Below, piece by piece: positions 47,480 through 51,167 of a stretch of 64,000 bases of DNA. The stretch is taken from contig JBBRSB010000027.1 in the NCBI GenBank assembly GCA_038245785.1, forward strand, positions 1 to 64,000. Direction: 5' to 3'. Origin of the DNA: Gloeobacterales cyanobacterium. GTDB lineage: Bacteria > Cyanobacteriota > Cyanobacteriia > Gloeobacterales > PMM-0068. The stretch's first letter is position 1, and every line of letters begins with the position of its first letter. Position numbers and translations under genes: made by a program. Below the pieces are notes generated by a model. It worked only from the letters and a program-made list of their open reading frames with translations, was not told where the DNA came from and ran no database searches.

Positions 47480-47668
47480 CTAATGAATACTATCAGGGCC
47501 TTCAGAATCTGATTCTTCTGGTAGTGCTAAAGGTGGGTCCAACGGTTCTATGAGGATCTGGTTTGGAGCAAGTGTCGCTTCTAGATTCCAGCCATTTTCC
47601 TCTTCCATTTGTTGTTGAAGATCTTGCCATTCTTGTTGTTGTTGAAAATCTGGCAGTCCGGGGTCCAT
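47480..47668 (-). CDS. Small acidic Gln-rich orphan (candidate cargo)
   Basis: CAAGGAGA RBS 6 nt before ATG; composition like neighbours. Confidence 0.65.
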   Translation of the reverse strand: MDPGLPDFQQQQEWQDLQQQMEEENGWNLEATLAPNQILIEPLDPPLALPEESDSEGPDSIH

Positions 47669-47829
47669 AGTTCATCTCCTTGTCATTGTTTATTGTGAAT
47701 AGACTCACGGTTTCTTTGACTATTAGAAAAGTAGTGACTTTAGACCTGGATACTGCTGCTAGTCACTATAATTCAAGAGTCTTTGACACTATCTGCATAA
47801 ATGTTGTTTGAAACACTGAAAACATGATT

Positions 47830-48234
47830 CTAAGCTGCTGGAGCAGTCATTGGCCCGCCGTGATTTTCATCCTCGGATTCATAATCACCCGAGTATGGAG
47901 GCTGGTATTCAGAATAATTTTCTGGAGTAGGTTCAAAAAGTTCAGGCTCTGGATTGTTATCTATCTCAGCTCTTAAACCAAAACTCGTTTCCAGTACTTC
48001 CTGATCTTCTCCATTTGGATAAGGAGGAGTTTCCTCTATAATCACATCTCCGTCAGCATCTAGAGGGAAATGGGGACTTTCCCCTTCTTCCATGATGATG
48101 TCTTCGTCAAGCAGAAAAGGGTCTTGATCCACATCTTCATGAGCGATAAGGCTATCTTCATCTTGTGTTTCTGTACTTGCTTCTTCAACGGGAACTTCAG
48201 AAGATTCTAAAGGCTCATACTCGTTTTCTTCCAT
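47830..48234 (-). CDS. Acidic low-complexity orphan (candidate cargo)
   Basis: CAAGGAGA RBS before MEENEY; Glu/Asp/Pro rich. Confidence 0.7.
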   Translation of the reverse strand: MEENEYEPLESSEVPVEEASTETQDEDSLIAHEDVDQDPFLLDEDIIMEEGESPHFPLDADGDVIIEETPPYPNGEDQEVLETSFGLRAEIDNNPEPELFEPTPENYSEYQPPYSGDYESEDENHGGPMTAPAA

Positions 48235-48436
48235 GGTGCTTCTCCTTGTAGTTAGTTGACGAACCAATGATTGTGTAGCCAGTGACTGCAATCTTTGTTT
48301 CTGTCCTACATACGTCGGAGGATATTAGATGGATCACTAAGGTGGGCAAAATTTTTTGAGCCCTTAAAATAAATAGAGCATTGTTGTTATAGCAATGCTC
48401 TGCACTGACCAGACGCCATAGAACGATGGACAGGGT

Positions 48437-49474
48437 CTATCCCATGTCAGTATCTTCTGGGGGCATGGGATAATCGCCCAAGGGATGCTGTTCTTGCTCT
48501 TGTATCTTTAGCCGTTCATCCCGTTCTCTTTGCCAATTAGGGTCATCATTGTCTGTATTAACGCCAACGCCTCCACTACTTGGCTGATAAAAAGAGCCCA
48601 CTGTGCTATCTAAGGCTGTATGAGCATCGCTTTCAGCATTATCTCGATGGGCGAGGTAGCTATTCATCATTTCAGTACTGGCCGATGCTGCTGCCTGATC
48701 CGAACCACGGATTAAGTTGCTATTACTATCCAAAGGGACTTCATCAAAAGCTTCTACGTGGGTATCGTCTGCCCCAAAGCCCACGGGATTGAAAACATTA
48801 ATGCTCTCAACAGGAGCATGGGGGTCTGCGGTATTACTCGTGTCGCGGAACATATGGGCGTTGCTGTAGCTGTCTTCGAGGGCATGGGTAGCCTGTCCCA
48901 GGTCGCGCATCTCTTGCGCTTGCAGATCTGCCTTCGAAACTCCATTCCAGTCATCTATTCCAGGGTCATCATGCAGATCTTCGATAGAGTCTTGGTTATC
49001 CTTCAAATTCGAGGCAGCTCGCCCTGTGAGTACACTACGCTGAATTCCCTGGTTAATCTCCTCGTGTGACAGAAATCCATCACGGTTGCTGTCCAGTTTA
49101 TCGAAGTTTTTGAGGGCGTCATGGTCTGCCTTCGCAGTCTCTAATTCATCTGTGACAAAGTTGCGAATATCTGCCAAATTCTGTTCACCAGATTTATTTG
49201 GATCAGCCATACTATGCTCTCGTTGGGCATCACGGGCCGCCCAATATGGCTTCCAGGTATCTCCCCCACCGAAAGTACTATCCTCACCAAAAAACTCGTT
49301 TACGATCGGGGCACCCGGACTGCGGTCAGCATATTTCTGACCTTCATCTAAAGCGGCATAAAACTGGTCAAAATTCATCCCATCTACTTGACCATCAACA
49401 GCTCTCGCGGCAAAGAGCTGTCGCGCCGCTTCTTGTGTAATTGCATGGTGACCAGCATCTTTCTTTTGGTCCAT
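48437..49474 (-). CDS. Putative Zn-dependent phospholipase C/P1 nuclease (HET-C-like) fold protein with EF-hand insertion; candidate effector
   Basis: HHAITQEA, YADR, EHSM, LGQATHALEDSYSNAH metal-ligand pattern; DSNRDGFLSHEE EF-hand. Confidence 0.6.
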   Translation of the reverse strand: MDQKKDAGHHAITQEAARQLFAARAVDGQVDGMNFDQFYAALDEGQKYADRSPGAPIVNEFFGEDSTFGGGDTWKPYWAARDAQREHSMADPNKSGEQNLADIRNFVTDELETAKADHDALKNFDKLDSNRDGFLSHEEINQGIQRSVLTGRAASNLKDNQDSIEDLHDDPGIDDWNGVSKADLQAQEMRDLGQATHALEDSYSNAHMFRDTSNTADPHAPVESINVFNPVGFGADDTHVEAFDEVPLDSNSNLIRGSDQAAASASTEMMNSYLAHRDNAESDAHTALDSTVGSFYQPSSGGVGVNTDNDDPNWQRERDERLKIQEQEQHPLGDYPMPPEDTDMG

Positions 49475-49526
49475 TTTTTGTAGAGCTCCTTGTTAGTATG
49501 TACAGAACATAGGTTCGCGGTTAAAA

Positions 49527-49961
49527 CTAAGCCCAAGTTGGATCTTCTGGTGGCATTGGATAATCCCCAGGCTCAGAAGGCGTCGAATCATCTGTCGGAA
49601 TTTCAGGATACTCTTCTGGCTGCGCATTCAGAATCACAGGTTTTCCTGTGAGCGGGTCATGAATAATCATCGGTGGCTGAGGGTGCATCTGTTCGTTGGC
49701 TTTCCGAATCGAGCGAGTAACCGGATCTTCTTCAGAAATTGTTGGAAGAGGATCGGGCTTCCACCATTCATGAGGTCCTTGCTCACCCCGACGTTGGGCT
49801 TCTCGTTTATCCTCTTCCTCTTGTTCCGCTCGTCGACGTTTTTCTGGATCGTCATAGCGGTCACTGGTGCTTCCCTTTGGCGTGACCCCAATCTGCCAAT
49901 CTCCCACAGTCACACCAAGACCCGTATCGTTTATTTCTAGTTCATCTTCGTCAGGATTCAT
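49527..49961 (-). CDS. Acidic Pro-rich orphan (candidate cargo)
   Basis: AAGGAG RBS; ends GDYPMPPEDPTWA. Confidence 0.7.
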   Translation of the reverse strand: MNPDEDELEINDTGLGVTVGDWQIGVTPKGSTSDRYDDPEKRRRAEQEEEDKREAQRRGEQGPHEWWKPDPLPTISEEDPVTRSIRKANEQMHPQPPMIIHDPLTGKPVILNAQPEEYPEIPTDDSTPSEPGDYPMPPEDPTWA

Positions 49962-50063
49962 TCTGTATCTCCTTTGACTTTTAAATAAATAATCAGGTGA
50001 TTTGAAACTTCCTCCCAGTAGTCACCCTCGATTTCATCATCCACAATCTAGCCATCGATTTCA

Positions 50064-50110
50064 GTAGGAAAAAGTGAGAACGTTCTCTTGCAAAGGTTTT
50101 AAAAAGTAAT
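50064..50110 (-). promoter_or_regulatory. Candidate operator pair upstream of 49961
   Basis: Minus strand ATTACTTTTTAAAAC (50096-50110) and CTCACTTTTTCCTAC (50064-50078). Confidence 0.5.
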
Positions 50111-50157
50111 AAGGCTCAAAAGGTGTCACTTCTGAGCCTTTCTGAGAGAAGTCAGGA

Positions 50158-50595
50158 TTAATAAATACCGTGGTCATCAGGGTCTCTTCCCAATCCACCA
50201 TGGTTAGGAAAAAGGTCATAGGTTTCTTTATCCTCAGGGGAGAGAGTCTCGTAGAAGTCGGGAGGAACTGGCTCAGTATCAGCGTCACCTGTGACACTAT
50301 CCCAAACATGCTCAGCAGTGTCGGTCACATCGTCCCAAACTTTTTCTGCCCCATCTGAAACGGTATCCCAAACTTCTCCTGCCTTATCCATATATTCCTG
50401 AGGCATCTCTAAGGTAGGTGTTGGCGTGGGATTAAATCCTGGTGGAAATGGATCTCCGTCAGATTCTCCTTCACCGGAAAGTTCTACCAGGTCACGCTCA
50501 CTAAATGCCCCTAAATTACTACTGGAGGAACTGCTTGAGGACCCACTAGAAGAACTGCTCATCTCATCAACCATCCCCATCTCTTCATCTTCCAT
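50158..50595 (-). CDS. Acidic orphan with poly-Ser and 11-mer (A..VWD.V.D) repeats (candidate cargo)
   Basis: CAAGGAGA RBS before MEDEE at 50595; AGEVWDTVSDG/AEKVWDDVTDT/AEHVWDSVTG. Confidence 0.7.
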   Translation of the reverse strand: MEDEEMGMVDEMSSSSSGSSSSSSSSNLGAFSERDLVELSGEGESDGDPFPPGFNPTPTPTLEMPQEYMDKAGEVWDTVSDGAEKVWDDVTDTAEHVWDSVTGDADTEPVPPDFYETLSPEDKETYDLFPNHGGLGRDPDDHGIY

Positions 50596-50726
50596 ATCTG
50601 ATTCTCCTTGCCCTAAATCGGTGTCTTTTGGAAAAGACACCAAGTCAGTGATTCTTATAAAGTATTACTAACTTGGTGCTATACGCGTTCACTCCCCCAT
50701 GATTGACTGGCTAAGCCAAAAAGTAT

Positions 50727-51167
50727 TTAGTCAAAGGGATTGAGATAGTCCAAAGCGTCACTAGCTGCGTCAGAAACGGTGTCATAAGCATCACTAGCGG
50801 CATCAGAAACCGTGTCATAAGCATCACTAGCCTTATCAGAAATTGTGTCGTAGGCTCCTGATGCCATGTGCCCAACACCTTCTAGATACTCACCTTCAGA
50901 GAAAGCATTAGCAGCCTGGTAGGACTCTTCTTCACCGACTAAGCTCGTCAGGCCATCGGAGATTGCGCCACTAACTGCTCCATCGGTAGCATGCTCGATA
51001 CCCATACCAATAGCTGCGCCCGCTGCTCCAGCAACTAGCACCGCACCGCCAATTACTCCAGCCGTCGTGGCAGCAGCACCTGCTGCTCCAGCCCCCATAA
51101 ACCCTGCACCGAGGGCTCCAGCGCCTCCCACGATTTCGTATACACCCTGCTCTTCTTTATCAGACAT
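50727..51167 (-). CDS. Gly/Ala-zipper protein with 11-mer ASDAYDTVSDA repeats (candidate membrane-active cargo)
   Basis: GGAG RBS before MSDKEE; long GxxxG-rich hydrophobic N-half; amphipathic 11-mers. Confidence 0.75.
   Translation of the reverse strand: MSDKEEQGVYEIVGGAGALGAGFMGAGAAGAAATTAGVIGGAVLVAGAAGAAIGMGIEHATDGAVSGAISDGLTSLVGEEESYQAANAFSEGEYLEGVGHMASGAYDTISDKASDAYDTVSDAASDAYDTVSDAASDALDYLNPFD
50758..50856. repeat. 33-bp tandem repeat, 3 copies (coding)
   Basis: TCACTAGC..TCAGAAA..GTGTC.TA.GC units at 50758, 50791, 50824. Confidence 0.85.

Follow-up and report, generated by a model that had tools for sequence, protein, structure and literature searches.

A hyper-acidic gene cassette with a predicted hydrolase-fold protein beside a contractile injection system in a Gloeobacterales cyanobacterium

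The window analysed here is a 64,000-nucleotide stretch (contig C27, JBBRSB010000027.1) of a 5.0-Mb genome in 255 contigs (assembly GCA_038245785.1) from Gloeobacterales, a group of thylakoid-less, early-branching cyanobacteria. It encodes a contractile injection system (CIS), split into several blocks, and directly upstream of the baseplate block lies an array of six minus-strand open reading frames (ORFs), A1 to A6. We judge it somewhat better than an even chance that the six form a fast-evolving, co-regulated effector or accessory cassette of the neighbouring CIS, in which A3 is an enzymatic toxin candidate. The tie to the CIS is drawn from the position of the cassette within the genus, from a repeat specific to the locus, and from the recurrence of the A3 family in CIS loci of another phylum. 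An earlier note, made from the DNA letters alone, had described the array as a candidate cargo cassette of orphan, largely disordered proteins; the functional link to the CIS (shared repeat, position, A3 family at CIS loci and A3 fold) has gained support, the word orphan has to be given up for four members, and the words largely disordered have to be given up for A3 and are doubtful for A6. The cargo is the least understood part of a CIS outside a few model organisms, and for cyanobacterial CIS the literature examined mentions only unverified DUF4157 candidates. The six ORFs are as follows.

50727-51167, minus strand: A6, 146 residues, with a family of 34 aligned database matches
50158-50595, minus strand: A5, 145 residues, acidic with a serine run, with an orthologue in the sister genome G002
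49527-49961, minus strand: A4, 144 residues, charged (15% proline), ending in GDYPMPPEDPTWA, with an orthologue in G002
48437-49474, minus strand: A3, 345 residues, a folded, all-helical candidate hydrolase with a metal site (from an AlphaFold2 model, the structural aligner VIA-align and a family alignment)
47830-48234, minus strand: A2, 134 residues, 32% Asp and Glu with one basic residue, a near-orphan
47480-47668, minus strand: A1, 62 residues, acidic, no basic residue, with AAGGAG 7 nucleotides before its ATG

All six ORFs reported earlier are present in the ORF listing, with the coordinates given for them. Longer alternative starts are on offer for three of them (TTG at 48291, TTG at 50643 and ATG at 51182); the ATG starts used here are those with a Shine-Dalgarno site in front, and the A6 start at 51167 also matches the N-terminus of the A6 homologues. 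AAGGAG precedes A1 to A5 and GGAG precedes A6, as had been claimed, and AAGGAG likewise stands before the genes at 22886 and 30182 and before PAAR (37360). Across the genome the sequence is found at -17 to -4 in 106 of 4032 crude ORFs, an approximate figure because the start calls are crude. Signal peptides were judged absent by eye, the N-termini being acidic and having no basic n-region.

The richness of the array in Asp and Glu is borne out by a combined content (D+E) of 16-32%, against 0-10% for Lys and Arg (K+R), and by net charges of -15 to -42. D+E, K+R and net charge are 24.2%, 0% and -15 for A1; 32.1%, 0.7% and -42 for A2; 19.7%, 7.8% and -41 for A3; 23.6%, 10.4% and -19 for A4; 25.5%, 3.4% and -32 for A5; and 16.4%, 1.4% and -22 for A6. 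When the 4032 crude ORFs of at least 120 residues in the whole genome are ranked by acidity, the array stands out far beyond chance and its members are extreme outliers. Only 17 of these ORFs have 0.13 or more net acidic charges per residue; A2, A5, A6 and A4 are four of them, and four further ones lie elsewhere in the same locus, these being the tape measure (31806), both RTX proteins (22886 and 23528) and the protein encoded at 30182. A3, at 0.119, is among the 29 ORFs at or above 0.10. A charge-hydropathy plot places the confidently folded A3 on its disordered side, so it carries little weight for A1, A2, A4 and A5. The description of the proteins as largely disordered fails for A3, in which 274 of 345 residues are modelled with a predicted local distance difference test score (pLDDT) of at least 70, and is doubtful for A6, whose model, of low confidence, is all-helical with a hydrophobic hairpin.

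The expression signals of the array are those listed here, with hairpin folding energies compared to 200 shuffles.

51278-51326, minus strand: paired repeat before A6, ATCACTTTTTCATAC ... CTTACTTTTTCTCAC, starts 34 nucleotides apart, 111-145 nucleotides upstream of the A6 start
50111-50140, minus strand: terminator-like hairpin 3' of A5, 12-bp stem with U tail, -17.3 kcal/mol, z -3.9
50064-50110, minus strand: paired repeat before A4, ATTACTTTTTAAAAC ... CTCACTTTTTCCTAC, starts 32 nucleotides apart
48375-48401, minus strand: terminator-like hairpin 3' of A3, 9-bp stem with U-rich tail, -11.2 kcal/mol, z -2.2 (8 of 200 shuffles equal)
47428-47470, minus strand: strong hairpin 3' of A1 with no U tail, -26.4 kcal/mol, z -6.4 (0 of 200 shuffles equal)

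Both hairpins proposed earlier fold (48375-48401 and 47428-47470), and a further one, missed at the time, separates A6-A5 from A4-A3 (50111-50140). Together with the paired repeats, the hairpins suggest transcription units of roughly A6-A5, A4-A3, A2 and A1. The array is divergent from the baseplate operon, as the earlier note had it, with gp25 (51732, plus strand) lying across a 564-bp spacer.

The operator motif that had been placed upstream of the array is real and locus-specific, a paired direct repeat (TYACTTTTTC). The exact motif, AYYACTTTTTCMTAC, occurs five times in the 5.0-Mb genome and its reversed control not once. Four of the five sites fall in the locus, at 20581 and 20623 before the kinase and regulator genes, at 29783 before the needle operon and at 51312 before A6; the fifth is at C120:1460, on another contig. 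Each exact site is accompanied by a second, looser copy on the same strand 32-52 nucleotides downstream. The looser pattern has 19 sites genome-wide, among which there are only five same-strand pairs at that distance: before the kinase and regulator genes, the needle operon, A6, A4 and the C120 gene. Allowing one mismatch, the motif is no commoner than its reversed control in the relatives; the only sites counted here are those that match exactly, occur in pairs or keep their position between genomes. G002 retains the pair before the A6 counterpart (L012 9856), in the same position, and also before an extra acidic gene, X. Response regulators typically bind direct repeats that are whole helical turns apart. 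As the same paired repeat stands before the cassette, the needle operon and the kinase and regulator genes, the first two cassette units (A6-A5 and A4-A3) are probably co-regulated with the needle operon and the kinase/LuxR-type regulator. The pair marks the regulon of the system genome-wide and points to members away from the locus, such as the C120 gene. This satellite locus (C120:1073-2136) has the pair at 1460 and 1493, followed by a gene with an AAAGGAG site whose product of 177 residues has an acidic N-terminus and a transmembrane segment; an acidic ORF of 103 residues lies in front. It is likely to be a further member of the regulon.

A3 is the anchor gene of the cassette. Its AlphaFold2 model is all-helical, with a pLDDT of 83.7 and a predicted template modelling score of 0.84, and only residues 52-71, residues 171-174 and the tail (334-345) are disordered; the disordered tail ends in GDYPMPPEDTDMG. 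When the model was compared exhaustively with 48,161 Protein Data Bank (PDB) representatives using VIA-align, the top six matches were all zinc phospholipases C or S1/P1 nucleases. Listeria PlcB (Z 10.6), Bacillus cereus phospholipase C (PLC; 10.5) and alpha-toxin (9.8) lead, and S1/P1-type nucleases take ranks 4 to 6 (Z 8.2, 7.7 and 7.3). The next match is an EF-hand domain on residues 118-190 (Z 5.4). The alignments to the superfamily span 153-167 residues at a root-mean-square deviation of 3.6-4.0 and 8-16% identity. A Foldseek search of the PDB missed the hydrolase fold and returned weak EF-hand matches only, and profile searches of PDB sequences with the A3 family gave EF-hands or nothing, with no hydrolase.

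Conservation within the family agrees with a metal site. Among 18 aligned relatives H9, H10, D50, H87, H197, D201, H207, H239 and D244 are invariant, and the same His/Asp set is kept in 33 wider, more distant relatives. A3 and all its relatives carry H-x3-D-x5-H (THALEDSYSNAH; H197-D201-H207 in A3). The metal site of the superfamily is trinuclear, formed by about five His, three Asp or Glu and the N-terminus. In relatives free of the insert described below, the conserved residues stand at 9, 52, 72, 117, 121, 127, 170 and 175, close to the ligands of the B. cereus PLC, which we take to be numbered 14, 55, 69, 118, 122, 128, 142 and 146. The residue order and the HxxxDx5H motif of A3 fit a PLC-type site, with that presumed ligand list as the reference. 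On the strength of the model we take A3 to represent a new branch, so far without annotation, of the phospholipase C / S1-P1 nuclease superfamily. The known members (1ah7, B. cereus PC-PLC; 8cqm, PlcB; 1olp, alpha-toxin N-domain; 5fb9, S1 nuclease) share with it the all-helical fold and the order and number of the invariant His and Asp residues, including HxxxDx5H. A3 differs in having no sequence-level match to them, in an N-terminus that is Met-Asp-Gln rather than a processed Trp and has no signal peptide, and in the addition of a 70-residue EF-hand insert and an acidic disordered tail. The Pfam model of the zinc phospholipases (Zn_dep_PLPC, PF00882) matched 0 of 18 members at E<=1 and 0 of 49 representatives at 1e-3.

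The insert occupies residues ~118-190 (~70 residues). Its loop DSNRDGFLSHEE fits the canonical 12-residue EF-hand pattern by eye, four Pfam EF-hand models match A3 below their cut-offs (20.1 against 25.9 bits), such models match 11-12 of the 18 relatives, and EF-hand structures align to the same residues (Z 5.4-5.1). The segment is absent from distant relatives, which marks it as an insertion. A3 is accordingly a predicted metal-dependent hydrolase and, from its modelled EF-hand, a candidate for calcium sensing. A word-indexed database holds 22 relatives of A3, and a profile search of 1.84 billion representatives gave 413 matches at E<=1e-3 and 68 at E<=1e-30, many of the weaker ones covering only the EF-hand part. 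Pfam covers the core in 0 of 49 representatives; two of these have an M23 peptidoglycan peptidase as fusion partner.

The Het-C domain is predicted to have its fold and active site in common with phospholipase C and the S1-P1 nucleases; Het-C toxins are reported from actinobacteria and cyanobacteria, and also among the toxins that PVC-type systems export (Zhang et al. 2012, PMC3482391). A3 and Het-C (Tox-HET-C; VWA7_N, PF25107, the animal branch of Het-C; Het-C, PF07217) are both predicted to belong to this superfamily. A3 as Het-C proper was rejected because the hidden Markov models fail and the motif spacing differs, HxxxDx5H in A3 against the HxxxDxxxH listed for Tox-HET-C (PMC3482391). VWA7_N matched 2 of the 18 relatives (best E 9.3e-6) and not A3 itself; it was found in 0 of 14 genomes of the order in a six-frame search and in 0 of 49 representatives at E<=1e-3. 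Language-model neighbours of A3 include VWA7_N and Het-C clusters, which is a lead only.

Three A3 loci were found in genomes outside the order, all in Actinomycetota. At each of the three, a sheath gene sharing 42% identity with the one in the window is encoded 1.25-1.9 kb away from the A3 homologue, in divergent orientation. The homologue belongs to a string with a Pvc16-like gene and small acidic proteins of peptidoglycan-binding type, and the same loci continue with a kinase, two LuxR regulators and a WD40 protein, the accessory set of the window. The A3 family is unannotated, fairly widespread and present in related injection-system loci of two phyla, which makes it a concrete effector candidate. 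At seven other loci that hold an A3 homologue, the genes around it bear no resemblance to A1, A2, A4, A5 or A6.

A6 begins with a short acidic N-terminus, followed by a 45-residue Gly/Ala hydrophobic segment, a conserved core (IGMGIEH.TDG...LVGEEESY..A.AF..G.YLEG.GHM), 11-residue repeats of the form SDxASDAYDTV, whose number varies among homologues, and a C-terminal NPFD. The hydrophobic stretch reaches 1.89 in a 19-residue Kyte-Doolittle window and is modelled as an N-terminal helical hairpin (mean pLDDT 57). No Gly-zipper Pfam model matched A6 itself. We infer that A6 is a conserved glycine-zipper protein of membrane type, which could insert into membranes. Homologues were found in 3 of 401 sampled cyanobacterial genomes; against PHROGs the best match is an unannotated PHROG (E 0.0043), and one relative is labelled 'phage-related tail protein' in one source. 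A5 carries three 11-residue repeats (AGEVWDTVSDG, AEKVWDDVTDT and AEHVWDSVTGD) of the same type as those of A6, and its residues 70-105, over the repeats, weakly match phrog_16297, 'tail length tape measure protein' (E 2.5e-4). In Gloeobacter homologues of A3 (L009; G008 9340-10596) a Gly/Ala glycine-zipper segment that resembles the hydrophobic part of A6 is inserted after the catalytic HxxxDx5H region; Gly-zipper Pfam models match 4 of the 18 A3 family members (best E 9.7e-5).

A4 lies directly before A3 with a gap of 52 nucleotides, and the two proteins have a common tail, GDYPMPPED, which a six-frame scan found nowhere else in the genome. In the 18-sequence alignment of the A3 family this tail is present in seven sequences, A3 and six relatives at 69-81% identity, and in no Gloeobacter or distant relative. 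It may be a common recognition tag. A weak relative of A4 in genome G011 (312 residues) ends in PGDFPPPDENN, and the ESM Atlas gave no usable match for A4. A2 was found in its own genome and in none of 13 others of the order; among 5.8 billion clusters it has only two relatives, metagenome proteins that are 93% identical and cover 86-95% of the A2 frame. A1 has no relative elsewhere in its own genome or in the fetched loci, and its coding status is the least certain of the six. No paralogue of any of the six exists elsewhere in the genome. The term orphan is wrong for four of the six, A3 and A6 having 22 and 34 relatives and A4 and A5 having orthologues in G002, to which genus both are restricted. 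Searches of Pfam, NCBIfam and PHROGs with the six proteins gave nothing above cut-offs; the matches below threshold are to EF-hands, the weak tape-measure PHROG and one XopAW (E 0.0075).

In the two genomes of the genus that have a CIS, that of the window and G002, the cassette and gp25 are divergent. In G002 the order is an A6 counterpart (35% alike), the extra acidic gene, whose N-terminus resembles that of A4, then A5, A4, A3 and, where the contig ends, a transposase; A2 and A1 are missing. The transposase (L012, G002:C111, 13625-14839) is of mutator/IS256 type by eye and directly follows the A3 orthologue. A4 is 83% and A5 66-71% identical to its orthologue, and the ratio of nonsynonymous to synonymous substitution (dN/dS) against G002 is 0.091 for A3, 0.083 for A4 and 0.224 for A5. 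By this comparison the three are under purifying selection. Their dN of 0.10-0.22, compared with 0.026-0.029 for gp25, baseplate J and DUF4159, indicates constraint combined with a pace of change 4-8 times that of the structural genes. In G001, the third member genome of the genus, neither sheath nor gp25 was found, and all that is left of A3 is a relic of its tail, flanked by housekeeping genes.

If the cassette serves the CIS, A6-A5 and A4-A3 would be switched on together with the needle operon (acidic 277-residue protein, tube, tape measure, tube initiator, VgrG and PAAR) and the kinase/LuxR-type regulator. A3 would act as a metal-dependent hydrolase attacking membrane phospholipid or nucleic acid, possibly under calcium control. 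A6 would be a small glycine-zipper protein, possibly inserting into membranes, that has tape-measure-like 11-residue repeats in common with A5, and A4, A2 and A1, small, very acidic and probably unstructured, may be co-cargo, adaptors or inhibitors. The putative cargo could have other cells as its target or, as happens in Streptomyces, the cell that produces it.

Effector genes beside a CIS are of a known kind; the families in this cassette are new, and that of A3 has no database model. Actinobacterial CIS effectors are described as divergent beside the structural genes, with transmembrane hairpins or tape-measure-like parts, and as filling the lumen (PMC10066040, PMC13277306 and PMC11126660). 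Sco4256-4258 of Streptomyces coelicolor are small proteins encoded in the CIS cluster that have a single hydrophobic membrane segment and occupy the inside of the tube (PMC10066040). A combination of an N-terminal region and one hydrophobic segment is also seen in A6 and the C120 protein. Sco4257 and Sco4258 have ricin-type domains, and toxicity and loading are established for the Sco proteins. Sle1 and Sle2 of S. lividans are encoded just upstream of, and divergent to, the structural genes; Sle1 combines a helical hairpin that spans the membrane with remote homology to tape measures, and it requires a DUF4157 partner (PMC13277306). The hydrophobic hairpin predicted, at low confidence, at the start of A6 and the weak tape-measure match of A5 are points of likeness; A5 and A6 are far smaller (145-146 residues), and this genome has no DUF4157/eCIS_core. 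The Anabaena system is, like the present one, cyanobacterial with candidate cargo genes beside the structural cluster, and the protein families differ. Gloeobacter-type cyanobacteria lack thylakoids, in contrast to Anabaena. There the CIS is thylakoid-anchored, and the putative DUF4157 effectors Alr3311 and Alr3312, encoded next to the structural cluster, were detected by mass spectrometry and are unresolved in the map (PMC8894136). By analogy, the quick divergence of the genes, their turnover, the toxin-type hydrolase and the small protein of membrane type are in line with what the related actinobacterial systems have shown of CIS effectors, and the cassette proteins are plausible candidates for payload or for helpers.

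Several observations weigh against an effector role. The expectation that homologues keep to CIS loci holds for the window and G002, where the cassette adjoins gp25, and for A3 in all three Actinomycetota loci, which are syntenic kin and not three independent events; the A3 family occurs in only 1 of 201 genomes of that Actinomycetota order. It fails in Gloeobacter. Sheath and gp25 genes are present, though far from one another, in each of the four Gloeobacter genomes, and in every case the A3 homologue is hundreds of kb from both; at the one such locus read gene by gene (G008) it stands among housekeeping genes. The A6 homologue present in two of the four (G008 and G006) is likewise far from CIS genes and apart from the A3 homologue, and in G008 is flanked by housekeeping genes. 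An intact A3 relative, 77% identical, on metagenome contig L043 has the same neighbourhood as the G001 relic, beside Uma2, fibrillin and pantothenate kinase genes. In the six other metagenome loci (L045-L050) the A3 relative pairs with a gene for a TPR and bacterial-PH-domain protein, and no CIS gene is visible on these contigs, which are only 1.8-10 kb long. In six further genomes of the order, the 10 kb upstream of gp25 hold no acidic cassette and no ORF above 16% D+E, and the idea of the cassette as a conserved unit beyond the genus was dropped on this account. DUF4157/eCIS_core is absent from the whole genome in a six-frame search. The N-terminus of A3 is strictly conserved from residue 1 (MDQ..GHH), which would leave no room for a PVC-type N-terminal packaging signal. 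Acidity alone would not favour binding in the lumen either, to judge by known CIS: the inside of the tube carries negative charge in the Anabaena system as it does in AFP and PVC (PMC8894136), so acidic cargo would be repelled, as DNA is, rather than bound. The tape measure of the same needle, for which analogy suggests a place in the lumen, is itself hyper-acidic. Unlinked homologues leave an effector role possible, since the CIS genes of Gloeobacter are themselves scattered, yet linkage is not the rule.

The six proteins might instead be helpers that stay in the producer, co-regulated with the system and acting as membrane adaptors, assembly or firing factors, chaperones, or inhibitors of or immunity to A3. 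We regard this as unlikely, though it is the strongest of the alternatives. Co-regulation and adjacency fit helpers as well as cargo, a small acidic gene before an enzyme gene, as with A4 and A3 and their 52-nucleotide gap, is a common layout for an inhibitor or chaperone, and the Actinomycetota A3 homologue belongs to one string with the Pvc16-like structural gene and the small acidic peptidoglycan-binding-type proteins. A precedent is CisA, a conserved membrane protein needed for firing in S. coelicolor (PMC12237407). The hydrolase fold of A3, however, is typical of toxins and not of scaffolds, the content of the cassette turns over between two congeneric genomes, which would be unusual for assembly factors, and apart from A3 no member resembles the neighbours of A3 homologues elsewhere. 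Less probable again is that the cassette is lineage-specific rearrangement cargo unrelated to the CIS, consisting of acidic, calcium-binding or stress proteins that arrived in the stretch from PAAR to gp25 along with porin, DUF2808, FHA and kinase genes, with the motif belonging to a broader stress regulon. In genome G003 gp25 comes immediately after VgrG, the tube initiator and the tape measure, so that the 14 kb between PAAR and gp25 in the window, which also hold non-CIS genes, look inserted; the Gloeobacter homologues of A3 and A6 stand alone, and a transposase flanks the G002 cassette. Set against these points, every one of the five paired sites in the 5 Mb belongs to the CIS locus or precedes a single similar acidic/transmembrane gene, the A3 family is embedded in related CIS loci of another phylum, and 8 of the 17 most acidic proteins of the genome, the tape measure included, are encoded in this locus.

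A separate question is whether A1, and possibly A2, are genes at all or chance open frames in a decaying end of the cassette, to which we assign the smallest probability of the alternatives. The shortness of A1 (62 residues) and its want of relatives in its own genome and the fetched loci, the mere two 93%-identical relatives of A2, with none in the 13 other genomes of the order, and the G002 transposase standing after A3 where A2 and A1 would be are all in keeping with it. Both ORFs nevertheless have AAGGAG at proper spacing and the extreme composition of their neighbours, the strongest hairpin of the region lies 3' of A1, and the A2 frame is open in its two relatives, which span 86-95% of that frame.

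A bolder reading is a long shot, about as improbable as the unrelated insertion. The contents of the needle would be polyanionic and switched by calcium, comprising the tape measure, the DxDGDG protein, the two RTX proteins, A3 and the unstructured A1, A2, A4 and A5. Unfolded or inactive at the low calcium of the cytoplasm, they would pass along a tube of like charge, much as DNA passes along a phage tail, and would fold or become active in the high calcium outside the cell, with GDYPMPPED as a new C-terminal loading tag. This offers a testable idea of why nearly everything at the needle is extremely acidic and calcium-binding. Bench work is possible, as cultured Gloeobacter species carry A3 and A6 homologues and the same injection system.

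The remaining parts of the locus, identified with Pfam, are these.

16371-20427, minus strand: three tube genes, the sheath gene and a Pvc16-like gene
20914-22819: histidine kinase and LuxR-type regulator
21998-22819: the LuxR-type regulator of this pair
22886-23413 and 23528-23920: two RTX proteins
30182-37803: needle operon, encoding the acidic DxDGDG-repeat protein (277 residues), tube, a 997-residue protein, CIS_tube, VgrG and PAAR
about 14 kb between PAAR (37803) and gp25 (51732): porin, FHA, DUF2808 and Ser/Thr-kinase genes
51732-63542, plus strand, opposite to the array: gp25, baseplate J, P2_I, DUF4159, WD40, FHA and PP2C genes

The 997-residue protein of the needle operon (31806-34799) is identified by sequence as the tape measure because its C-terminus (...ERERKGLYIGRLPW) matches that of a protein of 1874 residues encoded between tube and tube initiator in G003. 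The resemblance is confined to the C-terminal ~30 residues. The protein is hyper-acidic and rich in Pro and Glu (D+E 20.5%, K+R 3.7%). The first gene of the operon (30182-31015) has an AAGGAG site and a paired upstream repeat as in the cassette; its product of 277 residues contains 27.8% D+E and repeated DxDGDG-type loops resembling calcium-binding sites, and it has no family match. Within the window no RNA family was found with Rfam, and a sigma-70 promoter scan gave 4 sites compared with 8.1 in shuffles, fewer than expected by chance.

Some minor observations were made in passing. The two RTX-repeat proteins (22886-23413 and 23528-23920) are small, contain ~21% D+E and are encoded behind the response regulator, the first with AAGGAG. 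The CIS blocks are interleaved with genes for two Ser/Thr kinases, four FHA-domain proteins and one PP2C phosphatase (14494-15336, 25873-26838, 29084-29617, 40053-40901, 44829-47276, 61414-62124 and 62127-63542), a set that recalls the PpkA/PppA/Fha threonine-phosphorylation switch of type VI secretion. The gene for a TPR and bacterial-PH-domain protein with a distant A3 relative forms an undescribed two-gene module, at one locus with an adjacent M23 peptidase gene. Finally, locus L018 (G011:C55, 628-2551) encodes a protein of 462 residues whose N-terminal half is acidic, whose middle part may be enzymatic and whose C-terminal part carries a glycine zipper; it is followed by an ORF that by eye contains ankyrin repeats, with the acidic 312-residue protein bearing the A4-like tail nearby. 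The 462-residue protein and the ankyrin-like ORF look like a toxin with its immunity protein.

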